Below, piece by piece: positions 1 to 39,708 of a DNA stretch of 39,708 nucleotides. The notes beneath the pieces are model-generated. The model worked only from the letters and a program-made list of their open reading frames with translations, had not been told where the DNA came from and did no database searches. This stretch comes from a virus, in the IMG/VR virus record IMGVR_UViG_3300045988_140580; one strand, given 5' to 3'. The translations under genes were made by a program, and so were the position numbers. The first letter of the stretch is position 1. Each line of letters begins with the position of its first letter.

Positions 1-81
1 ATCACCGTCGTCTTTGGCACATCCATTGCGACCATCTTCGGCGTATTCCTCATTCCGATTCTGTTCATCATCGTAGAAAAT
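1..81. repeat. Left copy of 81-bp terminal direct repeat (identical to 39628-39708). Candidate phage DTR, circular-assembly overlap, or att core.
   Basis: Exact identity of 1-81 with 39628-39708, read directly. The repeat has a higher GC content and a C-ending codon bias unlike the phage genes, and it is open in + frame 1, where it encodes a hydrophobic helix. Confidence 0.9.
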
Positions 82-180: not shown

Positions 181-1263
181 TCACGGGTAACTCCATGTTA
201 CTCGGTTGTCTGTGGAGTGTGTGTAGTATTTCAGAGTAGTTTCTATACTACTGTGACCCATCAGTTTGCTTACTCTCATAACGTCTACATGTTTCTCAGT
301 TATGAGTAGGGTAGCAAAAGTATGTCTCATGTCGTACAGGTGGTGTCCTCTACCCAGTACGGCATGGGTATACTTTTTGAATCGCATATTTACATTATCG
401 ACACTCATATAACCATACTGGCTCTTGAAGGAATAGAAGATATTATCCTTTGGGAGCCTTTTTATATTACTTACTAACCACTTACCATACTGCTCTTTGT
501 CTATCGGTACTATCCTATAACTGCTATCCTGTGTCTTCATCCCATCCTGTAGTTTTCCTCTGAATCCCAGGGATTTGTTGAAGTTCACATAGTTTTCCGT
601 AACATCTTCCTTGGTAAGCGCGAGTATTTCCTGTGGTCGTGCCCCAGTTATCATACCGATTACTATGTATATTTGGTAGACTAGGGGAAGCTTAGTAGAC
701 AAAGTTTTTTTATCTAGCAGCTTACTGACTTCCTCACTGGAGAATGTACGTATGTGTCTTTTGGGTTTACCCTTGATGGTCCTTATGGCACCTCTGCTTG
801 TCATTGGATTATTATCAAGGTATCCCTCGTATACCGCGGTTTCCAGTATAGCTTTGAAGTTCTTTCTCCATCTTGACAGGGTAGAAGTAGCGTAGCCATG
901 GGAAGCCAGACCTAGGAAATACCTATTGATATCCTGTGTAGTCAGATCATAAAACTTTGTCTTAGCTAACTTACTGCCTACTACATGTTTGTTATAGAAA
1001 TGCTTGATACCATTTAAGGTAGACTCACGATACACATTTTCCTTCAGTTCTATGAAGTGTTCCCAATATTCCTCTATGGTAGTAGGGGTGAAGTACTTTA
1101 TGTTTGTTCCTCGTACCTTATCAAAAAACTGCTCAACTTCCTGTCGGGTATCACACGTTTTACTAACTCGCTTACCATTACCGATGCATATAGCACCTTT
1201 GAATTTTCCATTTGGTGTCCTTGTTATAGAACCAGTACCTTTTTCTCTTCTTATTCTTTTCAT
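181..1263 (-). CDS. int: Tyrosine recombinase / phage integrase
   Basis: 360-aa ORF. The C-terminal catalytic region reads HDMRHTFATLL...LMGHSSIETTLKYYTH (R..HxxR..Y tyrosine recombinase motifs), and ARPQEILAL supplies the box A arginine. An RBS GAAAGGTGA lies upstream on the minus strand. It is the only large gene on the minus strand. Confidence 0.93.
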   Translation of the reverse strand: MKRIRREKGTGSITRTPNGKFKGAICIGNGKRVSKTCDTRQEVEQFFDKVRGTNIKYFTPTTIEEYWEHFIELKENVYRESTLNGIKHFYNKHVVGSKLAKTKFYDLTTQDINRYFLGLASHGYATSTLSRWRKNFKAILETAVYEGYLDNNPMTSRGAIRTIKGKPKRHIRTFSSEEVSKLLDKKTLSTKLPLVYQIYIVIGMITGARPQEILALTKEDVTENYVNFNKSLGFRGKLQDGMKTQDSSYRIVPIDKEQYGKWLVSNIKRLPKDNIFYSFKSQYGYMSVDNVNMRFKKYTHAVLGRGHHLYDMRHTFATLLITEKHVDVMRVSKLMGHSSIETTLKYYTHSTDNRVTWSYP

Positions 1264-1479
1264 ATATCACCTTTCTTCCCTAGATACTTTTAGTTGTTCC
1301 CTCTATGGGTAGGATAGCATAAGGGGACACAGTATTCCAGATGAAAATTGGAGAAAAATTTGTGATACTAGATTGATTGAGATCTCCTCAGATTTTCCCC
1401 CGTGTACCCCCTGGACAACAATATAAAATAAAATAAACTTAATTATATACTATTATATGTCTGAACAGAAACACATAAG

Positions 1480-1525
1480 GTCTCACGGTATCCCTGATAA
1501 TATCAAGGTTTACACGGTATCCAGT
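1480..1525. repeat. Direct repeat of CACGGTATCC(C/A)(T/G)TG at about 30-bp spacing (candidate protein-binding sites near int)
   Basis: tctCACGGTATCCctg at about 1480 and tttaCACGGTATCCagtg at about 1510. Confidence 0.4.
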
Positions 1526-1722
1526 GTCTATCTATTGCTTTTATTTATGATACACACGGAGCCGTTGTATTGATGTTATCAGTTTTTTTAATTAGTTGAA
1601 TGAGTCAACTATATGGATACTCAAGGATATATGATGGAAACATTAAGATATATGAACGAATGTTCATGTGATATTAAAAATTGCTCTATAAAATATCTGT
1701 CTATATACATTAGAAATACTTA

Positions 1723-1875
1723 TCACGTACATCAGAAATATTTATAAGATACATCAATGTTACTTATAATATACATTGGAAATACTTATAACATACATAT
1801 TCCAGGCATGGAGTATACTTATGACAGACACAGGAAATACGTATGATAGACACAGAATATGTTGGGATACATGGC
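1723..1875. repeat. Iteron-like array: about 7 imperfect tandem copies of a 22-bp unit GAAATACTTATNANNTACATCA
   Basis: Units begin at about 1723, 1745, 1767, 1789, 1811, 1834 and 1855, for example GAAATACTTATCACGTACATCA, GAAATATTTATAAGATACATCA, GAAATACTTATAACATACATAT and GGAAATACGTATGATAGACACA. The array is AT-rich and non-coding, and lies between int and the repressor module. Confidence 0.7.
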
Positions 1876-1944
1876 TTATGGTCTATAGCATATTGCTATT
1901 AATCTAAGCATCGAAAGAAGATAAAGCATTAACTAATTTTCTTA

Positions 1945-2337
1945 TTACTGTTTTGAGCGTATATACATAAAAGTACCAATAAGTAATATGATTCCGATAA
2001 TGATATTAAGAGATAATAAATAAGCTGTTTCATTTTTTAATTTATTAACTTCAGATTCTAATTGTTTTATTTTGTTATAATTTTGCGTTATTGTTTTTCC
2101 CTGTGCTTCATTTATTAATACTGTTTCAGATAAAACCTCATCAATACGCTCATTTGGCTGTAATGTTTGGGGATCTATATGCGGTTGAAAATTTCTATAT
2201 TTATCATTATACCACTGAACAAATGCATTATGTGTACCTCGGTCCCATGTATCATTTTTCCAGTCGTAGGCCATTATTTCCATAACAGAGACAAAGAGTA
2301 AACATAAAGAAATTATAATTTTGAAGAATATCTTCAT
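1945..2337 (-). CDS. Secreted/membrane protein (N-terminal signal peptide or TM, coiled coil, C-terminal TM). Candidate lysogenic-conversion or superinfection-exclusion protein.
   Basis: The ORF track gives 1945..2382 from a TTG start. The more plausible start is ATG 2337 (MKIFFKIIISLCLLFVSVMEIMA), preceded by GAGGTG. The C-terminal hydrophobic segment is LLSLNIIIGIILLIGTFMYI. It is co-oriented with the repressor and int. Confidence 0.5.
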   Translation of the reverse strand: MKIFFKIIISLCLLFVSVMEIMAYDWKNDTWDRGTHNAFVQWYNDKYRNFQPHIDPQTLQPNERIDEVLSETVLINEAQGKTITQNYNKIKQLESEVNKLKNETAYLLSLNIIIGIILLIGTFMYIRSKQ

Positions 2338-2434
2338 TTTATACACCTCAATTATATGTAAATTATAAGAATAGTATAGCAAAATATAGGTATCCTTAGA
2401 ATACTTTTGTATTCTTTAGATACCCATATTTTAG

Positions 2435-2611
2435 TTATTGCTTTTTATTTTCAGTTATTAGAATATTTTCATTATCATTAACATATTTTGTAATATGTCG
2501 TGTTAAATATCCGCTTACAGTGTCGCCTTTTATTTTTAGTATTTTTTGAAATTTGTTTTTTAGTTCACTATCTATTCTTATTTGCATGAACTTTTCTTTT
2601 GTGTCTTTCAT
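2435..2611 (-). CDS. Small ribbon-helix-helix (Arc/Mnt/CopG-like) DNA-binding protein, 58 aa. Candidate lysogeny repressor. Not in ORF track (under 60 aa).
   Basis: Hand translation of the minus strand gives MKDTKEKFMQIRIDSELKNKFQKILKIKGDTVSGYLTRHITKYVNDNENILITENKKQ*. The pattern is a beta-strand (FMQIRIDSEL) with alternating hydrophobics, helix A, a G-D-T-V-S-G loop (the G-x-S/T-x-S RHH hallmark) and helix B. An RBS AGAAGGGAAG lies 9 nt upstream. It is divergent from the early operon, with operators between them. Confidence 0.6.
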   Translation of the reverse strand: MKDTKEKFMQIRIDSELKNKFQKILKIKGDTVSGYLTRHITKYVNDNENILITENKKQ

Positions 2612-2637
2612 ATAATATCACTTCCCTTCTAATATTC

Positions 2638-2665
2638 ATTATAGCAGGTTTTTTAAGTTGTGACA
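2638..2665 (-). promoter_or_regulatory. Sigma70-like promoter for the RHH gene (minus strand): -35 TTGTCA (2665..2660), 16-nt spacer, -10 TATAAT (2643..2638)
   Basis: Read on the reverse complement. The -35 overlaps the operator half-site at 2660-2676. Confidence 0.45.
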
Positions 2666-2676
2666 ATGTAGTAAAA
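2660..2676. promoter_or_regulatory. Operator-like site O1 (half-conserved): TGTGACAATGTAGTAAA
   Basis: Shares CAATGTAGTAA with O2 and O3. Overlaps the -35 of the leftward promoter. Confidence 0.45.
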
Positions 2677-2692
2677 AAAAACAAATTAGGTA

Positions 2693-2721
2693 TTGACTTT
2701 GTCACTACATTGTAGTAATAT
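2693..2721 (+). promoter_or_regulatory. Sigma70-like early promoter: -35 TTGACT (2693-2698), 16-17-nt spacer, -10 TAATAT/AATATA (2715-2721)
   Basis: Near-consensus hexamers read directly. Operator O2 lies inside the spacer. The promoter is upstream of the first early gene (ATG 2822). Confidence 0.6.
2700..2717. promoter_or_regulatory. Operator O2: GTCACTACATTGTAGTAA (perfect 6+1+6 palindrome ACTACA-T-TGTAGT)
   Basis: Palindrome read directly. Located in the spacer of the early promoter. Confidence 0.6.
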
Positions 2722-2780
2722 ATACTCAACGAAAGGGAACATATCAAAATATAAAGTTCCCAAAAATTTTTAACTTCTTA

Positions 2781-2797
2781 TGTCACTACAATGTAGT
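2781..2797. promoter_or_regulatory. Operator O3: GTCACTACAATGTAGTA (palindrome ACTACA-A-TGTAGT) in the early-transcript leader
   Basis: Second perfect copy of the O2 palindrome, about 25 nt upstream of the first early gene's RBS. Confidence 0.55.
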
Positions 2798-2821
2798 ACA
2801 ATCAAGAAAGGAAGGGTAAAC

Positions 2822-3193
2822 ATGGAAGAAGTAACAAAGGAAATGATAATGGACGCTTTGACTGATTATGTTTCTGAATTGTCTGAAGAAGACACAATTA
2901 CACTATGGAATGCCTATTGTGAAGACTACAACCAGATGCACCGATTCATTTATCTAAATGATTTTGACGAACTCGACAGCGTTTTTAAGTCACCTTCAGA
3001 AGCTTTGTATATGGCACAGTATTCACCGTATCACATCAACGACAGATATTTTACTTACAGTTCTTTTTGTGGGCTTATGTCTTTCAGTTTTCTTACAGAT
3101 GAAAATAGTCCGGTAGTAGTTGATGAATTAGTTAGCTACCTGATGAGTCAAAGAGCTGTATATATTTTAGTAAAAAGTCAGTTAGAAAGGTAG
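2822..3193 (+). CDS. Early protein, strongly acidic (about 22 D/E vs 7 K/R in 124 aa). Candidate DNA-mimic / anti-restriction protein (by composition only).
   Basis: ATG 2822 with RBS AAAGGAAGGG; the ORF-track start at 2780 is less likely. It is the first gene of the host-transcribed operon, the position of T7 gene 0.3 (Ocr). Confidence 0.6.
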   Translation: MEEVTKEMIMDALTDYVSELSEEDTITLWNAYCEDYNQMHRFIYLNDFDELDSVFKSPSEALYMAQYSPYHINDRYFTYSSFCGLMSFSFLTDENSPVVVDELVSYLMSQRAVYILVKSQLER

Positions 3194-3202
3194 GTAATTA
3201 CT

Positions 3203-3418
3203 ATGACACAGAGAATCACGGAAAAATTTTTAGATAACATGATTAAAAACATCAATAACAGAACTGGCAGAAAGTACTTCTTAGAATATGCATACGGTGG
3301 GGTAAAACTGGCGCATACATACGAAAACGGCGGATACACAGATGAAAGTTATAGAATGACAAAACGAGAAATGTATTATGTCCTAGATGCTTTACAGCAC
3401 TTCATCAATCACAATTAG
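3203..3418 (+). CDS. Hypothetical early protein (71 aa)
   Basis: ORF with RBS GAAAGGTAGG. No recognisable motif. Confidence 0.5.
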   Translation: MTQRITEKFLDNMIKNINNRTGRKYFLEYAYGGVKLAHTYENGGYTDESYRMTKREMYYVLDALQHFINHN

Positions 3419-3426
3419 TGGATTTT

Positions 3427-3480
3427 ACAGGGTGCCTTAGAAAACTAAGGCACTCGATAAAGGCCACTAGAAGCCTTTAG
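3427..3480 (+). other. Conserved intergenic RNA element, copy A: two stem-loops (GUGCCUUAG-AAAA-CUAAGGCAC; AAAGGC-CACUAGAA-GCCUUU)
   Basis: Paralogous to 4177-4230, with compensatory base changes that preserve both stems. Confidence 0.6.
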
Positions 3481-3507
3481 GCAGTTAGGTAGAAAGGAAG
3501 TAATATC

Positions 3508-3963
3508 ATGACAAGAATTAGCCTGTATCACGTAGAGTTAGTAAAAGATAGCAGCCATAACTATAACGTCTCAAGAGATATGTCTAGCCCGTATAATGTC
3601 ATTCATATGCTTGTAAATACATTGCATCTGGACAAACGCAACGTAGAAAATTTTGGCATGATTGCAGTTAATACGCAAAACAAATTAATAGCTGTACAGA
3701 TTTTAACGCAAGGATCTATCGATACATCTATAGCAAGTACTAGAGAAGTCTTTCAATGCGCTTTACTGCATAATGCACGTGCCATAATACTATTCCATAA
3801 TCATCCTTCCGGGAATTCTGGTCCTTCTAAAGAAGATATAGCAATAACTAAAAGGATAGTTAAAGCTGGGGAACTACTAGGTATTCCGGTATTGGACCAT
3901 GTGATTATAGGTAGTGAGAACGATTACTTTAGCATGAGAAGTGAGGGAATTATCAATGACTAA
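3508..3963 (+). CDS. RadC-like JAB/MPN-domain protein (DUF2466 family)
   Basis: Motif ILFHNHPSGNSGPSKEDIAITKRI matches the RadC-like HNHPSG...PS.xDxxxT signature. 151 aa. Confidence 0.85.
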   Translation: MTRISLYHVELVKDSSHNYNVSRDMSSPYNVIHMLVNTLHLDKRNVENFGMIAVNTQNKLIAVQILTQGSIDTSIASTREVFQCALLHNARAIILFHNHPSGNSGPSKEDIAITKRIVKAGELLGIPVLDHVIIGSENDYFSMRSEGIIND

Positions 3964-4180
3964 CAAAGAATTAGCAAGAAAAATATACGATACGGGGCGT
4001 AATGAAACAACTACAGGAAACTGGGTTTTTCACATAAGTGAGTTAGATGGCAGGACGCCAGAAGAAGGTATGTATATCCTGTTAGATGAGTATAGAGAAG
4101 ACATTTTAGACATAACGTGTACAGATACAGAACTGGATATCATTTTCGCATTAGCTGTTTGTCCTTATTTTCAAGAGTGA
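3956..4180 (+). CDS. Hypothetical early protein (74 aa)
   Basis: ATG 3956 preceded by GAGGGAA. It overlaps the end of the RadC-like gene. Confidence 0.5.
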   Translation: MTNKELARKIYDTGRNETTTGNWVFHISELDGRTPEEGMYILLDEYREDILDITCTDTELDIIFALAVCPYFQE

Positions 4181-4230
4181 ATTTAACAGAGTACCTTAGA
4201 TAACTAAGGTATTCGATTAAGTCCACTAGT
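4177..4230 (+). other. Conserved intergenic RNA element, copy B: GUACCUUAG-AUAA-CUAAGGUA(U); UAAGUC-CACUAGU-GACUUA
   Basis: Same architecture as copy A. The loop CACUAG is conserved while the stems co-vary. Confidence 0.6.
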
Positions 4231-4264
4231 GACTTATCACATGTAACCAGAAAGGATGATACAT

Positions 4265-4846
4265 ATGTTAGCACAGGAAATTTTAAAAGTATTAGCACTC
4301 GATATGACTGAAAAAGAAAAAGTAGAAAAAATCCAAAAACTATGCACCGATGATATTTATGTACACACATGTAGCAAGCCTGTAGGCAATCGGTTTAAAT
4401 TCATACAGAAAGAGTGTAAGAAGGCTAAAAGACCTTGCTTAACAAAGGTACACAGATCGGAAAAATATGGCCTAGTCTGGACCGATGCTTATGTATTGTG
4501 CACGTTTAGAGATGATACATTTCCTACTGATTTATTAGCAACAGAAAAGGAAAAACTAAATGTAGACAATGTTTTAAAGAGTGTAGGTAATGATAAAGCC
4601 AATGCAAGTGTTGAATACAAGGACGTAAAAGCACGGCTTGCTTGTCTATCGACGAAAAAAGAAAAAGAAGCGGACATAATCGAAATAGGGGATTCAATTT
4701 TCAAGACTTGCTTAGTTGACAAAGTTTTCAAATTTTATGGCCTGGACAAACTGAATTTACATACAAAAAATAGCTGTGTTGCATACGGTTATACAGAAAA
4801 TGGTGATGCATTCTTAATTTGTCCGATGAAAAAGGAAGTTAAATAG
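4265..4846 (+). CDS. Hypothetical early protein (193 aa), Cys/Lys-rich, no recognised motif
   Basis: ATG 4265 with RBS AGAAAGGA at correct spacing; the track start at 4256 is too close to the RBS. It is the last gene before the terminator hairpin. Confidence 0.55.
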   Translation: MLAQEILKVLALDMTEKEKVEKIQKLCTDDIYVHTCSKPVGNRFKFIQKECKKAKRPCLTKVHRSEKYGLVWTDAYVLCTFRDDTFPTDLLATEKEKLNVDNVLKSVGNDKANASVEYKDVKARLACLSTKKEKEADIIEIGDSIFKTCLVDKVFKFYGLDKLNLHTKNSCVAYGYTENGDAFLICPMKKEVK

Positions 4847-4951
4847 ATATGAGTACAAAAGAGAAGATAGAAGGATATGCATACTACATCATACTTTGTC
4901 TCTTGTGCATGTTGTGTGAATACCTAGATAAAAACTTAATATAGTTAAGCT

Positions 4952-5005
4952 AAAAATAGCGTGTACTTAGAAATTTTTAAGTCACTCTAAGTACACGCTA
5001 TTTTT
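4952..5005 (+). terminator. Perfect 19-bp inverted repeat (AAAAATAGCGTGTACTTAG ... CTAAGTACACGCTATTTTT) with a 16-nt loop, followed by a T-run. Intrinsic terminator and/or RNase III-type site.
   Basis: Arms at 4952-4970 and 4987-5005 read directly. Located between the early genes and the RNAP gene. Confidence 0.75.
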
Positions 5006-5035
5006 ATATATAAATGCATGAACAAACGTTCTGTT

Positions 5036-5058
5036 AATTGTCCCACTATTAAGAGAAA
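5036..5058 (+). promoter_or_regulatory. Phage-RNAP promoter P1 (variant): ATTGTCCCACTATTAAGAGAAAT, followed by a degenerate copy ATTTGTCCCTTATTTAGAAAGG
   Basis: Member of a 4-copy family sharing ATTGTCCCACTAT(T/C)AAGAGA. Immediately upstream of the RNAP start codon. Confidence 0.6.
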
Positions 5059-5095
5059 TATAATTTGTCCCTTATTTAGAAAGGTGGTTAAAAAT

Positions 5096-7636
5096 ATGTA
5101 TACGCTGGAACAACAATTGGAAGTTGAAAAAATGTATAAGACAGTAGCGGAAGATTCCTTTTTTTCAAAATTGAATCAAGACAAGCAAGAAGGTAACTAT
5201 TCTAGAAGTTCCATAGGTAAAGGAATTATAAAGCAGGTTATGGCACCTTTTACAAAAAACATACACATAAAACTACAGGAAGTCACACTGAGTAAAAAAG
5301 GAGTAAAACCTAAATATTATGCAGTTCTCAAAAAATTCATGGATTACTATATAAACGACATGGATACTTTTGTTAATACATTAGCATTACAAACAATAAA
5401 GGTAGTAGTAAACAACATTGCTACCAATAGAAAAAACTGCAATATGATAGCTAGTGTTATAGGTACAGAACTACAAGATGAAGTAGAATTATATGCCTTT
5501 ATGCATACTGTCGAACATGCAGAAACAAGATATAGTAAAGACATAAATAAACGTGTAGGGAGGAGTTTCAAGAAGAATTTTATCTTACATGCATATCAAG
5601 GGAATGATTTTGTATTTCCTAAATTCAAAAAAACGGAGCTTACAGCTTTAGGCATGGAAATGATAGCTATACTTACAGAATCAGTAGACTTTTTCTACAT
5701 AGCTATGACAGGCGAAAAAGGTTTATTGGAGTTACATCCTAGTGATATGTTTTTACAAGCTGTCATAAAGTCGGAAGAAAACATTATGTCTAGGACGGTT
5801 AAATTAGTACCAACTATAATACCTCCTAAAGCATGGAAAGGAATATTTGAAGGAGGGTATTATGGGGCGTTAGGTATCCAAAATAGATTTATGCGTCATC
5901 ATCCCTATATGAAAGGCACAAAAACATTAAGTAGATACCTGGCACGGCTTAATGAATTAGACCTAACACCTATTTACAGAGCAGTTAATAGGATCCAGAA
6001 CACTGCCTATCATATCAATAGTTATATGCTCGATGTAGTAGGTTCTATATTAGAAAGCGGTGGAAATAGGGCAGGTATACCCCAGATGAAACCATATGAA
6101 AAACTTCCGGCTTTTCCGTATGGAGACAAAGAGATAGAAGAGTCTGAGGAATTGCAAGTGCTATTTAAAGAACATAAGAAGAAAATGATAACCATGATAC
6201 ATAAAGAAAACCAGAGACAAGGCAAGGCGCTAAGGTGCACCATGGTGTACAAATTAGCTAAAGATTTTAGCAGATTTGAGACAATATACTTCCCAATGAA
6301 TATTGATTTTCGAGGGCGTATATATCCCATTCCTACGGGTCTTAATCCACAGGGGGATGATATGACAAAAGGTTTACTGGAATATGCTTTTCCTAAAGCT
6401 GTGTCTAGTGAAGATTCCTTGCAATGGCTTATGATTCACGGTGCAGGGTTAGCAGGGCACGATAAAATTTGTCTGGATGAACGTGTACAATGGGTACAGG
6501 ATAACAAAGATAACATTGTAAATAGTGTCGATAATCCCATAGGGTACACATGGTGGCAAGAGCAGGATAAACCTTTCCAGTTCCTAGCGTGGTGCAGGGA
6601 ATACGTCAATGCCTTAGCTTATATGTTTGCACACAATGGCTCTTTAATAGGGTTCGAGTGTCATTGTGTAATAGCATATGACGGTACCTGCTCTGGACTT
6701 CAGCATTACTCTGCATTACTGAGAGATCCTGTTGGTGGCAGTGCGGTAAATCTGGTGGACCATGATAAGCCTAGTGATATTTATCAGGAAGTAGCAAATA
6801 AAGTTCTGATATCAGTAGAGAATGATTCTCATAATGGCACTATAGAAGATACAGACAGAAAAGGAAATAAGATACCTGGTACAAAAGCAATAGCGGAAGC
6901 ATGGCTTGCACATGGTATCACACGGAAAGTTTGTAAACGCCCTGTAATGACACTAGCCTATGGATCTGGGCAATATGGTTTTGGGGACCAGATTTTTGAA
7001 GATACGACAAAAGACAATCCCTTCTTTAATGGTGTAGGTGACTTCAGGGCAGCTAGATATATGGCTAGTAAGGTATGGGAGACTGTACAGACAACTGTAG
7101 TTTCTGCTACACAGGGCATGTCTTTTCTTAAGGAGTTAGCTAATGAGTTAGCGTCTGATAATATGCCTGTAGAATGGATTACACCGTTGGGATTGCCTGT
7201 ACAACAGATGTATCTTGATTTACATACGGAATGCTTCAGGTTACGGTTTGGTGGTGCCAGTGTGCGCTATCGTATATATGTTACAGAGCCGAAGGAAGGG
7301 GAAGACACAGACAAAAAGAAGCAGGTGTCTGGTGTTGCTCCTAACTTCATTCACTCCCTAGATGCTACTCACTTGATGATGTCTGTTAATGCTTGTGAGA
7401 ATGTGTCTAACTTCACTACGGTCCATGATTCATTTGGTACGTCATTAGGTGAAGCAGAGGAGCTGAGAGAAGTTATTAGACAGCAAATGGTTAAATTGTA
7501 TAGTGAAAATGAGCCACTAAAAGATTTTAAAGCTCATGCTGAAGAATTGCTAGGCAAACATATTGATATAGATTTACCCCGAAAAGGCACATTAGATATC
7601 AATTCTATTTTGTCTAGCAAATTTGTGTTTCACTAA
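5096..7636 (+). CDS. T7-like single-subunit DNA-dependent RNA polymerase
   Basis: The 846-aa protein has TTVHDSFGT (T7 RNAP motif C HDSFGT) and a palm/fingers region similar to T7 gene 1. The start is ATG 5096 after AAAGGTGG; the track's upstream ATG 5018 would place promoter P1 inside the gene. Confidence 0.95.
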   Translation: MYTLEQQLEVEKMYKTVAEDSFFSKLNQDKQEGNYSRSSIGKGIIKQVMAPFTKNIHIKLQEVTLSKKGVKPKYYAVLKKFMDYYINDMDTFVNTLALQTIKVVVNNIATNRKNCNMIASVIGTELQDEVELYAFMHTVEHAETRYSKDINKRVGRSFKKNFILHAYQGNDFVFPKFKKTELTALGMEMIAILTESVDFFYIAMTGEKGLLELHPSDMFLQAVIKSEENIMSRTVKLVPTIIPPKAWKGIFEGGYYGALGIQNRFMRHHPYMKGTKTLSRYLARLNELDLTPIYRAVNRIQNTAYHINSYMLDVVGSILESGGNRAGIPQMKPYEKLPAFPYGDKEIEESEELQVLFKEHKKKMITMIHKENQRQGKALRCTMVYKLAKDFSRFETIYFPMNIDFRGRIYPIPTGLNPQGDDMTKGLLEYAFPKAVSSEDSLQWLMIHGAGLAGHDKICLDERVQWVQDNKDNIVNSVDNPIGYTWWQEQDKPFQFLAWCREYVNALAYMFAHNGSLIGFECHCVIAYDGTCSGLQHYSALLRDPVGGSAVNLVDHDKPSDIYQEVANKVLISVENDSHNGTIEDTDRKGNKIPGTKAIAEAWLAHGITRKVCKRPVMTLAYGSGQYGFGDQIFEDTTKDNPFFNGVGDFRAARYMASKVWETVQTTVVSATQGMSFLKELANELASDNMPVEWITPLGLPVQQMYLDLHTECFRLRFGGASVRYRIYVTEPKEGEDTDKKKQVSGVAPNFIHSLDATHLMMSVNACENVSNFTTVHDSFGTSLGEAEELREVIRQQMVKLYSENEPLKDFKAHAEELLGKHIDIDLPRKGTLDINSILSSKFVFH

Positions 7637-7654
7637 GCAAGAACATAGAGTTTT

Positions 7655-7720
7655 GCAGAAGCACGTATAGAGTAGAAGCATAGGTTTAGACAAAAGTCAA
7701 GACTTCTGCTTCTACTTTTT
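7655..7720 (+). terminator. Hairpin(s) plus T-run after the RNAP gene (AGTAGAAGCA ... TGCTTCTACTTTTT; alternative GCAGAAG/CTTCTGC)
   Basis: 10-bp stem at 7671-7680 / 7707-7716 followed by TTTTT. Confidence 0.55.
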
Positions 7721-7743
7721 AATTGTCCCACATATACTGAAAA
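7721..7743 (+). promoter_or_regulatory. Promoter half-site variant AATTGTCCCACATATACTG, in tandem 27 bp upstream of P2
   Basis: Shares ATTGTCCCAC with the promoter family but diverges downstream (CATATA instead of CTATTAAGAGAGA). The same tandem arrangement recurs at 39358. Confidence 0.4.
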
Positions 7744-7746
7744 TCT

Positions 7747-7778
7747 TATTGTCCCACTATTAAGAGAGAAGGGAAAGG
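7747..7778 (+). promoter_or_regulatory. Phage-RNAP promoter P2: TATTGTCCCACTATTAAGAGAGAAGGGAAAGG
   Basis: Consensus family member. The CACTAT core matches T7 promoters (TCACTATAGGGAGA). It occupies the position of T7 phi1.1. Confidence 0.75.
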
Positions 7779-7884
7779 AATACCTTAGGTATATTAAGTA
7801 TTCCTTAGTTACTTTCTTGGTTACTTACTTAGTAGTTAGTTAGTAGTATTCCTAAGGAATACTAGGAAGGAGCAGAGAAGAGAA
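7776..7884 (+). other. Structured 5' leader downstream of P2 (12-bp stem AGTATTCCTTAG ... CTAAGGAATACT around a loop rich in TAGT/TTAG repeats)
   Basis: Inverted repeat at 7797-7808 / 7851-7862. An alternative pairing is GGAATAC with GTATTCC. Confidence 0.45.
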
Positions 7885-8307
7885 ATGTACAGCGTAGGAG
7901 ATTATGTAGTTATTCGAGAAATACCGGAAACCAATCGTTTTTCTAAATATAACGGTTTGGTTGCTAAAATTATCGGTAAACCTTACTCACAAATTTTAGT
8001 CTATGAAGTATGTATCTGTGGGTTAGAAGATGAAGGTAGTATCTATGTTGAAAGTGTTAATTTAGAACCATATGAAGATGTAGATTGCTACCATGACTCC
8101 CACTACAGAAACAGTGTCTTAGAACCCATTCTGGTAATGCAGAGTATGTTCACGCATGAAGAGTTCATAGGATTTCTCAAGGGAAACATTCTGAAATACA
8201 GATTACGCCTGGGACATAAAGACGATATCCAAAAGGAAATGGACAAGATACAGAGATACGAACAGTGGTTAGCAGAAGCAGAGGAGGGTAAGAAAATTAC
8301 GATATGA
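7885..8307 (+). CDS. Hypothetical protein (140 aa), first gene after P2
   Basis: ORF with RBS GGAAGGAG. No confident motif. Confidence 0.55.
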   Translation: MYSVGDYVVIREIPETNRFSKYNGLVAKIIGKPYSQILVYEVCICGLEDEGSIYVESVNLEPYEDVDCYHDSHYRNSVLEPILVMQSMFTHEEFIGFLKGNILKYRLRLGHKDDIQKEMDKIQRYEQWLAEAEEGKKITI

Positions 8308-8789
8308 TTTACAAAATTGAATTTCATAAATTACGGGATGATGTAGTAGTTCCACAGATTCAGACGGAGGGTTCAGCAGGTGCAGACTTAGTGGTACCAG
8401 ATGATACCTATATCCCACCTTTCCATAGTGTGGGTCACGGAACGCTTGTGCCTTTAGGGTTCTCTTTAGATATCCCTAAAGGAATGCAGGTACACATTAT
8501 GTTACGGTCAAGTGTAGGGCTGAATACTCCATTACGATTATCTAATGGTGTCGGTTTGATTGACTCAGATTACAAAGGCGAAATTTGTCTGCTATTAGAT
8601 AATTTGTCTAAAAATATCGTTTTTATCAAAAGTGGGACTCGAATAGCACAAATGCTACCTTTTTGCAGTGCGAAGTGGGAACTTTCTTCTATTGTCCCAC
8701 TATCAAGAGAGAAGAGGGATAAAATCCCAATCCAGAAAAGAACAGGTGGATTCGGTTCCACCAACAGAAAAAGGAGCGATAGCGAATGA
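8304..8789 (+). CDS. dut: dUTP pyrophosphatase (dUTPase)
   Basis: Trimeric dUTPase motifs: GSAGADL (motif 2), GLIDSDYKGE (motif 3) and RTGGFGSTN (motif 5). 161 aa. Promoter P3 is embedded in its 3' part. Confidence 0.85.
   Translation: MIYKIEFHKLRDDVVVPQIQTEGSAGADLVVPDDTYIPPFHSVGHGTLVPLGFSLDIPKGMQVHIMLRSSVGLNTPLRLSNGVGLIDSDYKGEICLLLDNLSKNIVFIKSGTRIAQMLPFCSAKWELSSIVPLSREKRDKIPIQKRTGGFGSTNRKRSDSE
8690..8721 (+). promoter_or_regulatory. Phage-RNAP promoter P3: TATTGTCCCACTATCAAGAGAGAAGAGGGATA (inside dut, upstream of SSB, like T7 phi2.5)
   Basis: Family member with one substitution (T to C). Confidence 0.7.
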
Positions 8790-9328
8790 AAATCAAAGGG
8801 AAAGCATTTTGGGCAAAAGTAAGGACACCAGAAACATATCAGGGAAATCCTGTGGGATACTCTGTACAGGTTGAAATGCCTGAGGAAAATCTTCAGCGCA
8901 TGAAGGATTACTTTACTGACAAATGCAAAAATGAACAGTTTACAGACAAACGTTGTGATGGTGAAATCACACTGCCAATCAAGGTCGATGAAACCACAGG
9001 TAGAAAAACGGTAAAGGTAAAGACTAAACACTTCTATGTCGAAAAAGCTACAGGCAAGCAGGTTAATAAGGTAATCCCTATTTACAACGAATATGGTGAA
9101 ATTATTCCGGAAGATGTACTTATTGGGAACGGCTCTGATGTAGAAGTAGCCTGTAACTGCAAATTCTTCTATGATTCTGCTAAGAAGTGGGGCGTACGGC
9201 TCTACTTACAGAGCATGATGGTCACTAACCTTGTCAAATACAGTACAGACGGTTCAGATGAATTCGAGTTTAAGAAACGTCCTGAAGTGGAAGAAGCAGA
9301 CGTGCAGGAAGATGAGGTGGATTTCTAA
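8786..9328 (+). CDS. T7 gp2.5-like single-stranded DNA-binding protein
   Basis: 180-aa protein. The acidic C-terminal tail ends in ...EEADVQEDEVDF, with a terminal Phe as in gp2.5. Gene order matches T7. Confidence 0.8.
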   Translation: MKIKGKAFWAKVRTPETYQGNPVGYSVQVEMPEENLQRMKDYFTDKCKNEQFTDKRCDGEITLPIKVDETTGRKTVKVKTKHFYVEKATGKQVNKVIPIYNEYGEIIPEDVLIGNGSDVEVACNCKFFYDSAKKWGVRLYLQSMMVTNLVKYSTDGSDEFEFKKRPEVEEADVQEDEVDF

Positions 9329-39627: not shown

Positions 39628-39708
39628 ATCACCGTCGTCTTTGGCACATCCATTGCGACCATCTTCGGCGTATTCCTCATTCCGATTCTGTTCATCATCG
39701 TAGAAAAT
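39628..39708. repeat. Right copy of the 81-bp terminal direct repeat
   Basis: Identical to 1-81. Confidence 0.9.

Follow-up and report, generated by a model that had tools for sequence, protein, structure and literature searches.

The window analysed here, the whole 39,708-nucleotide (nt) stretch of IMG/VR record IMGVR_UViG_3300045988_140580, is a ~39.6-kb T7-like podophage or prophage with an integrase and a gene for a single-subunit RNA polymerase (RNAP; match to PHROG 414, E = 5.5e-227). Its early operon contains two paralogous intercistronic elements, A and B, which are the subject of this study (Table 1). The genes are arranged, by open reading frame (ORF), in the order ORF137, ORF71, element A, a RadC-like JAB gene, ORF74, element B, ORF196 and a terminator. 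The protein encoded directly after A is a RadC-like JAB-domain protein (PF04002, E = 2.3e-40). Both elements come after the promoter region at 2693-2726, where the operon presumably starts, and before the terminator at 4952-5009, and both precede the RNAP gene. They are thus within the early operon read by host RNA polymerase and are parts of polycistronic early mRNA.

Table 1. Elements A and B and other features of the window, with their positions.
Feature	Position	Strand	Remarks
Element A, long irregular hairpin	3415-3470	+	From sequence, minimum-free-energy folds, pair counts and covariance-model score (78.6 bits)
A basal stem	3415-3421/3464-3470	+	UUAGUGG/CCACUAG
A 1x1 mismatch	A3422 x G3463	+	
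A middle stem	3423-3427/3458-3462	+	
A 2x2 internal loop	C3428 A3429 / G3456 A3457	+	
A upper stem	3430-3440/3445-3455	+	Loop AAAA, 3441-3444
Stop codon TAG of upstream 71-aa ORF (3203-3418)	3416-3418	+	In basal stem of A, on its 5' strand
Element B, long irregular hairpin	4176-4227	+	From sequence, folds and covariance-model score (77.3 bits)
B basal stem	4176-4179/4224-4227	+	AGUG/CACU
B mismatch	A4180 x C4223	+	
B middle stem	4181-4186/4217-4222	+	
B internal loop	C4187 A4188 / G4215 A4216	+	
B upper stem	4189-4199/4204-4214	+	Loop AUAA, 4200-4203
Stop codon TGA of upstream 74/79-aa ORF (3941/3956-4180)	4178-4180	+	Within 5' strand of B lower stem
Stem-loop 2 of copy A, AAAGGC-CACUAGAA-GCCUUU	3459-3478	+	Alternative fold, -7.7 kcal/mol, z = -1.8
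Stem-loop 2 of copy B, UAAGUC-CACUAGU-GACUUA	4218-4236	+	Weak alternative fold, -5.7 kcal/mol, z = -2.2
Accessory cassette between A and B	3508-4180	+	RadC-like JAB-domain gene 3508-3963 and 74-aa ORF 3956-4180
Tyrosine integrase	181-1263	-	
Early promoter(s), sigma-70-like, flanked by operator-like palindromes	2693-2726	+	Promoter scan of 1200-8900
Intrinsic terminator closing the early operon	4952-5009	+	20-bp stem AAAAAUAGCGUGUACUUAGA/UCUAAGUACACGCUAUUUUU followed by U-run
Phage-RNAP promoter, family TTAATTGTCCCACTATTAAGAGA	5035-5058	+	Just upstream of RNAP gene; motif unlike A/B elements

Both copies are present on the plus strand with the sequences quoted in an initial annotation of this DNA, which had described two paralogous intergenic RNA elements, each made of two stem-loops (SL1 and SL2). 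The paralogy is real. The window contains two exact copies, and no more, of the 17-mer TCGATWAAGNCCACTAG; at up to three mismatches it has four matches versus 0.55 expected, a number reached by no shuffle. Element B is offset from A by 759 nt, and the longest exact match between the two is 8 nt. SL1, the upper stem of each element, comprises 11 base pairs (bp) in both copies (GGGUGCCUUAG/CUAAGGCACUC in A, GAGUACCUUAG/CUAAGGUAUUC in B); it folds as claimed, with z-scores of -4 to -6, and has strong support from compensatory changes in over 25 distinct copies of related phages. The reported change of a G-C to an A-U pair was also found, at 3434-3451 in A versus 4193-4210 in B. With the lower stems included, the helix consists of 7 + 5 + 11 bp in A and 4 + 6 + 11 bp in B, split by 1x1 and 2x2 internal loops. 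The coordinates given for B had to be corrected, being 9 nt out of register with those of A: SL1 of B lies at 4189-4214, and its quoted SL2 ends at 4236, not at 4230.

Pattern scans over three collections revealed the element in ~20 IMG/VR contigs, a Megasphaera genome and several metagenome contigs (relatives are referred to below by L numbers where they have to be told apart). A covariance model built from 17 copies recovered more copies that lack the exact pattern. Applied to the window with filters off, this model finds only A and B; the next best plus-strand match, at 4954-5015 (17.7 bits), is the early terminator and not a family member. A scan of 185k genomes for the 17-mer gave 78 matches, among which only the contig of Megasphaera sp. 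AM44-1BH has the hairpin, the others being chance matches without it. The metagenome pattern scan gave 14 loci, with L196 and L209 as informative new variants. L201, L204, L205 and probably L208 are chance matches, and L208, a weak match without ORF context, was left out of the family. No DNA similarity to deposited phage genomes was detected at blastn sensitivity. The carriers are integrase-bearing T7-like phages with one to three copies each, and their RNAPs are 31-87% identical to that of the window. Since the AM44-1BH contig is 95% identical across the integrase arm, terminal repeat included, the host is Megasphaera, a Negativicute.

Folding of 23 copies together with their flanks gave one long irregular hairpin in 23 out of 23 cases. 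The shared architecture comprises a basal stem, a 1x1 mismatch or bulge, a middle stem UUUWA/UWAAG, an internal loop, an upper stem and an apical loop, with a stacked helix of ~21-23 bp per element. The 2x2 internal loop 5'-CA/5'-GA is constant, while the upper stem (9-13 bp) is variable and the apical loop has 3-8 nt. The initial annotation had proposed to look for fold and covariation in homologous phages. Covariation is indeed present, in 29 distinct copies, and the fold is one long hairpin, not two stem-loops. Standard pairs occupy 92.0% of the pair cells in these 29 copies, compared with 31-46% when the partners are slid, and 17 of the 24 pairs show changes on both sides. None of 500 shuffles matched any of the pair-count measures, and a 17-sequence MAFFT alignment gave the same pairing picture. 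G.U pairs outnumber A.C (71 versus 22), two wobble positions are conserved, and the plus (sense) strand has the more stable fold in 26 of the 29 copies; these observations point to a structure of the RNA or sense strand. Selection on RNA structure rather than on DNA sequence, which the initial annotation had argued for from the two copies, is supported by these counts.

The divergent copies show how the pairing is kept. Upstream of every copy stands (C)UAGUGG or a variant complementary to CCACUAG, and CCACUAG or its substitutes pair with the sequence just upstream in all of the flank-folded copies. UUUUA...UAAAG covaries with UUUAA...UUAAG. In L166 the basal UAGUGG/CCACUA is exchanged for CUUCUUAA/UCAAGAGG, and in L209 (CUAGU/AUUAG) GG and CC have been lost together. 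The type-2 copies, found in L019-like phages, have a basal CUAGAG/CCCUAG, and their upper stem GAGGAUACUA/UAGUAUCCUC has G-C at a pair that every one of the 17 copies in the first alignment forms as U-A. L170 and L196 carry GUAAUUUAA/UUAAGUUAU, with basal pairing GUA/UAU in L170, and one Megasphaera copy carries CCACUAU. All of these copies were retrieved without any demand on the basal strands. Native 5' flanks paired better than their own shuffles in eight out of eight cases (4 to 109 of 1000 shuffles were as good). The invariant nucleotides, UU.ACAG / UC(G)AU.AAG, form the internal loop and its neighbours. This core is identical even among phages that share no more than 31-55% identity in their RNAPs and 50-59% in their ORF74 homologues.

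Over the whole window, Rfam 15 gave nothing at gathering thresholds. The best sub-threshold match, to mir-124 at 3413-3472 on both strands (30.8 and 24.5 bits versus a gathering score of 49), is due to chance and reflects a generic ~60-nt imperfect hairpin. The A/B family is a structured RNA motif without an Rfam family, backed by covariation.

The claims made for SL2 fared less well. Its loop CACUAG, described as invariant, is CCACUAU in the copy of the Megasphaera prophage and CCCUAG in type 2, and is wholly replaced in L166, L170 and L209. A role of CCACUAG as a recognition loop is not supported; the motif makes up the 3' side of the basal stem, where it pairs with the stop-codon region upstream, and divergent copies can do without it. 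The two SL2 stems (AAAGGC/GCCUUU and UAAGUC/GACUUA), said to differ completely, differ at just two of six pairs. SL2 occurs in none of the minimum-free-energy structures of the 23 copies folded with flanks and, because it takes the 3' strand of the lower stems, SL2 and the long hairpin are mutually exclusive. Four sequence families form SL2 with arms of different sequence (AAGGC/GCCUU, AAGUC/GACUU, AGUCC/GGACU and AAGUUAU/AUAGCUU); folded in isolation, it reaches -7.7, -5.7, -6.1 and -5.4 kcal/mol in four families, within a family-wide range of 0 to -7.7. It is missing in L209 and in the L004 hybrid, and in L166 it does not exceed shuffles. Conservation of the B type runs exactly to the end of the 3' arm of SL2 (UGACUU) and then stops. 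SL2 is possibly an alternative conformer, formed for example after cleavage or while a ribosome stands on the stop codon, and not the main structure.

Every copy with callable flanking ORFs is co-oriented with its flanking genes. The upstream ORF mostly ends in or beside the 5' strand of the lower stem, its stop codon preceding ACAG by 7-17 nt in the majority of copies. The downstream ORF starts 29-77 nt past TCGAT in nearly all copies, and the 3' end of the hairpin is 15-40 nt ahead of the next Shine-Dalgarno sequence and start codon. As the upstream stop abuts or overlaps the base and the downstream start follows closely, the element fills the intercistronic spacer. In six close relatives whose genes were mapped, the elements stand where modules meet. 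The L170 copy is found inside a DNA-replication module, between a helicase-side ORF and a gene for a gp2.5-like single-stranded DNA-binding protein. The 74-aa ORF upstream of B is conserved in most relatives, at 50-59% identity, and several of these also have it directly upstream of an element copy. Some relatives have an additional 82-90-aa ORF between the RadC-like gene and the 74-aa ORF.

A second repeated intercistronic hairpin family, GUCGAAACAAGGGGA-CUAGC-UCCCUUUGUCUAG, was observed in L194 (3269-3359 and 3656-3746) and L028 (2963-2994 and 4109-4140). When searched for in the window, this second family (GTCGAAACAAGRGG) was absent. Since relatives carry a second, different family, repeated intercistronic hairpins seem to be general in these early operons. 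L028 also has four copies of the perfect palindrome ATTGTAATGGCCATTACAAT (at 1437, 1890, 3781 and 8708), one of them directly after an element copy; this palindrome may be an operator or a hairpin.

Three chimeric junctions show directly that the element repeats act as recombination linkers, by which early accessory cassettes are deleted, inserted or swapped. L004/L192 has a single chimeric A/B element in place of the 3508-4180 cassette and thus lacks the RadC-like gene and ORF74. The element is A-type on the left through CCACTAG and B-type on the right, with the crossover inside CCACTAG, and a 54-nt overlap aligns to both 3417-3470 and 4176-4229 of the window. In L147, from a different lineage, a type-1 left half is joined to a type-2 right half inside TCGATTAAGTCC. 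In L021, a type-1 element is followed by the gene that otherwise follows type 2, with the crossover at the Shine-Dalgarno sequence. The intervening cassette is missing in both. Assembly collapse is an unlikely source of the chimeras, because the longest exact match between A and B is so short. The same ~55-nt sequence recurs between early genes, which makes the elements a substrate for homologous recombination, and the variation of the crossover points among the three junctions indicates that recombination is homologous, not site-specific. A site-specific recombination site of the integron attC type was not supported, there being no fixed core: the junctions fall at CCACTAG, at TCGATTAAGTCC and in the Shine-Dalgarno region.

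The five early intergenic sites of phage T7 (R0.3, R0.5, R1, R1.1 and R1.3), folded here with cleavage coordinates reportedly from Dunn & Studier 1983, form paralogous hairpins; their flanks CUCAAGG.../...CCUUUAUGAU are conserved and their ~10-bp upper stem varies. Like A and B, they occur as several paralogous copies in the spacers of a host-transcribed early operon, with the first early accessory genes between them. In both groups an irregular hairpin of ~two turns carries an internal loop, and the flanks or loop are conserved while the upper stem varies with compensatory changes. The T7 flanks and the UUWACAG.../...UCGAUWAAG of the A/B family are analogous, not homologous. Unlike the T7 sites, the A/B family has a small symmetric 2x2 internal loop (CA/GA) and the upstream stop codon inside the stem; its host is a Negativicute (Megasphaera), the phage is temperate and cleavage is putative. 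The put sites of HK022 and the nut sites of lambda are likewise small structured RNAs of early operons whose paralogous copies carry compensatory differences. Such sites lie close to the promoter, with a single one in each operon, and their target is RNA polymerase. By contrast, the A/B elements are found at gene junctions, up to three per operon, as one long helix with variable apical loops and no match to a known antiterminator.

In T4-type phages, recombination at PeSLs (promoter-early stem-loops) takes ORFs out or brings them in, and a chimeric element stays behind, with variable crossovers (Arbiol et al. 2010, PMC2839356); PeSL cassettes of these phages are also described by Comeau et al. 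2014 (PMC4122927). The junctions in L004/L192, L147 and L021 resemble this process, as recombination between neighbouring copies removes or adds ORFs and leaves a chimera. However, a PeSL consists of a strong sigma-70-like promoter and a terminator stem-loop, whereas A and B are internal to a polycistronic transcript and mark no unit boundary. The promoter scan of 1200-8900 found no sigma-70-like promoter overlapping 3415-3480 or 4176-4240. The terminator scan lists neither A nor B, and the hairpins are followed by UCGAUWAAG without a U-tract. With neither promoter nor terminator detected, A and B fail the definition of a PeSL.

On these grounds we favour, giving it about an even chance, the reading that A and B belong to the phage early-mRNA intercistronic processing hairpins as a new, non-homologous class member. 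An RNase III-type site fits best because each element folds not into two hairpins but into one irregular helix, ~21-23 bp long, whose internal loop is conserved. The RNase III of Escherichia coli generally acts on substrates with ~two helical turns, a length that coaxially stacked short helices can supply, and internal loops limit the enzyme to cleavage of one strand, leaving protective 3' hairpins (PMC1540722). A ~two-turn helix with internal loops, as in such substrates, was found in 23/23 copies. The context is also that of an RNase III site: sense-oriented and intercistronic, with a stop codon upstream and a Shine-Dalgarno sequence and ATG downstream. Passages in PMC4838370 place RNase III in nearly all bacteria and describe the Bacillus subtilis enzyme as one of narrow specificity that cuts early mRNA of phage SP82. 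The SP82 sites (Panganiban & Whiteley 1983, as cited in the same passages) are thus cut by the RNase III of a Firmicute host, and we liken them to A and B by description only. The strict conservation around the internal loop would fit an RNase III of narrow specificity, of the B. subtilis type. The L170 copy, located in a replication module, favours general mRNA processing or stability over antitermination of host RNAP.

Under this model, the early polycistronic mRNA would carry each element as a long irregular hairpin with the upstream stop codon at its base. A double-strand-specific endoribonuclease, most likely host RNase III, would recognise the element as a processing and/or stability site and might cut at or beside the internal loop, splitting the early transcript into gene-sized mRNAs. 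As at the early sites R0.3-R1.3 of T7, a protective hairpin would remain at the 3' end of the upstream products, and the freed 3' strand could refold into SL2, either after cleavage or while a ribosome stands on the embedded stop codon.

Several points weigh against a processing site. We infer the function from architecture and context only, and there is neither sequence similarity to the T7 R sites nor a family in Rfam 15. An upper stem of 9-13 bp means that there is no fixed distance between apical and internal loop. The strict conservation of the internal loop and lower stem exceeds the known needs of RNase III of the E. coli type, and it could equally mark a sequence-specific RNA-binding protein or another nuclease. 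The covariation over 29 copies was counted on a model-fitted alignment, which is biased towards the structure, and many copies share descent, so that the pair cells are not independent events. An unlikely but more far-reaching option is a sequence-specific regulatory module, in which the CA/GA loop and lower stem would be bound by a dedicated phage or host factor, or would be remodelled to SL1 + SL2 by the ribosome ending on the embedded stop codon. Such a module would set the amount of transcription or translation arriving at the terminator-guarded, self-activating RNAP gene, take part in the lysis-lysogeny commitment of temperate T7-like phages and serve as a portable linker by which early anti-defence cassettes pass between phages.

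The other readings differ in which conformation, or which nucleic acid, they hold to be functional. In the layout of the initial annotation, two independent small stem-loops would offer the CACUAG loop of SL2 to an RNA-binding protein, such as a translational regulator of the downstream gene. The capacity of SL2 to form in four families with different arms, the exact end of B-type conservation at its 3' arm and the position of the element just upstream of the Shine-Dalgarno sequence agree with this layout. However, SL2 never appears in minimum-free-energy folds that include the 5' flank; its stability is low (0 to -7.7 kcal/mol), and it is lost in L209, at shuffle level in L166 and broken in the L004 hybrid. 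Its 'loop' varies or vanishes (CACUAU, CUAGGA, ACUCU), the conservation of CCACUAG is accounted for by pairing with the 5' strand that contains the stop codon, and predicted Shine-Dalgarno accessibility does not change consistently between the conformations. This layout thus has an outside chance. We hold it to be quite improbable that the element is a translation-coupled switch, in which a ribosome ending on the embedded stop would melt the lower stems, allow SL2 to form and couple downstream expression or decay to upstream translation. Most copies do have the stop codon within or beside the 5' strand of the lower stem, and the lower stems and SL2 exclude each other, but tight gene packing alone could put stop codons at the base of a hairpin, some family members lack SL2, and no consistent effect on predicted Shine-Dalgarno exposure was seen. 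Direct occlusion, with the 3' arm of SL2 pairing with the Shine-Dalgarno sequence when the long hairpin forms, was rejected, as predicted accessibility did not shift consistently across 14 copies.

An element acting purely as DNA, a linker or site for recombination that would shuffle early cassettes without any RNA function, could account for the three independent chimeric junctions and parallels the PeSL-mediated shuffling of T4-type phages (PMC2839356). Yet a linker needs identity only, and the upper stem changes its sequence while pairing is kept; moreover, G.U is tolerated on the sense strand only, and crossovers as different as CCACTAG, TCGATTAAGTCC and the Shine-Dalgarno sequence define no recombination core. 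The chance that the elements are DNA linkers only is slim. It is slimmer for a cis-acting antiterminator RNA like put of HK022, which would make host RNA polymerase read through the 4952-5009 terminator ahead of the RNAP gene. A strong terminator does separate the early operon from that gene, and the SL1 + SL2 conformer would be a structured RNA of ~55 nt with two hairpins. This conformer is superficially put-like. Against antitermination stand the dominant fold, a single long helix, the placement of up to three copies per operon at gene junctions and not near the promoter, the L170 copy in a replication module, where antitermination of host RNAP is unlikely, and the lack of likeness to known antiterminator RNAs in Rfam. 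A second promoter class for the phage RNAP, with CCACTAG resembling the promoter core CCCACTAT, has a negligible probability. CCACTA is common to the elements and to the window promoter family TATTGTCCCACTATTAAGAGAG, but it is all they share, the bases directly on either side differ, and CCACTAG is missing from the L166, L170, L209 and type-2 copies. The promoter consensus is CCCACTATTAAGAGAG in the window and the L190/L200 contigs, CCCACATAGTAGAGAG in L192, CACACATACAGAGGAA in L194 and TCCACTAAAGGGAGAA in L028. The elements were rejected as phage-RNAP promoters, as the consensus tracks RNAP lineage in these four lineages while the element core is constant. They were also rejected as repressor operators: the palindrome arms differ between copies of one phage and co-vary, and the likely operators are CACTACAWTGTAGT at 2660-2800.

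The surroundings of the elements have further features. Divergent sigma-70-like promoters and operator-like palindromes are found at ~2640-2726. Three copies of the palindrome CACTACAWTGTAGT surround these promoters (2660-2800), and three 30-nt direct repeats (ATATACATTAGAAATACTTATCACGTACAT) stand further upstream, at 1703-1798; both are probably repressor-binding sites of the lysogeny switch. The terminator that closes the early operon is strong and bidirectional (A-run and U-run), and a phage-RNAP promoter follows 26 nt further on. A Shine-Dalgarno sequence and ATG at 5096 are likely the true start of the RNAP gene, which the ORF list has at 5018. As terminator, own promoter and Shine-Dalgarno/ATG precede it in series, the RNAP gene is terminator-guarded and driven by its own promoter. 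The promoter family TATTGTCCCACTATTAAGAGAG occurs at five sites of the window (5030, 7741, 8684, 39352 and 39379), and the right end of the window has two phage promoters in tandem, 27 nt apart. An exact 81-nt direct repeat is found at both ends of the window (1-81 and 39628-39708) and is probably the att duplication of a prophage. It resembles the 3' end of a host membrane-protein gene and aligns to 1145-1233 of the Megasphaera sp. AM44-1BH contig (L064). A search of the neighbouring early ORFs for a phage nuclease or RNA-binding protein gave no informative Pfam or PHROG match except the RadC-like JAB protein.

Taken together, these results describe a structured RNA motif in a little-studied group of temperate, T7-like phages that infect gut Negativicutes. 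Should the motif be a processing site, a host of the Firmicute lineage has an independent and non-homologous counterpart of the T7-style cutting of early mRNA at paralogous hairpins, and the conserved internal loop could report on the specificity of the host RNase III. Whatever the function of the element, the three chimeric junctions show a route for the gain and loss of early accessory genes such as the RadC-like one; this route, homologous recombination where intercistronic RNA elements are repeated, extends the PeSL idea from T4-type to T7-type phages. The invariant core and the covariance model provide a usable metagenome probe for early operons of this phage group, and the lineage-specific promoter consensuses (CCCACTATTAAGAGAG, CCCACATAGTAGAGAG, CACACATACAGAGGAA and TCCACTAAAGGGAGAA) offer a natural series for the evolution of promoter specificity. 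The terminator and own promoter at the RNAP gene form a positive-feedback layout, of a kind that would be apt for switching between lysis and lysogeny in a temperate T7-like phage.

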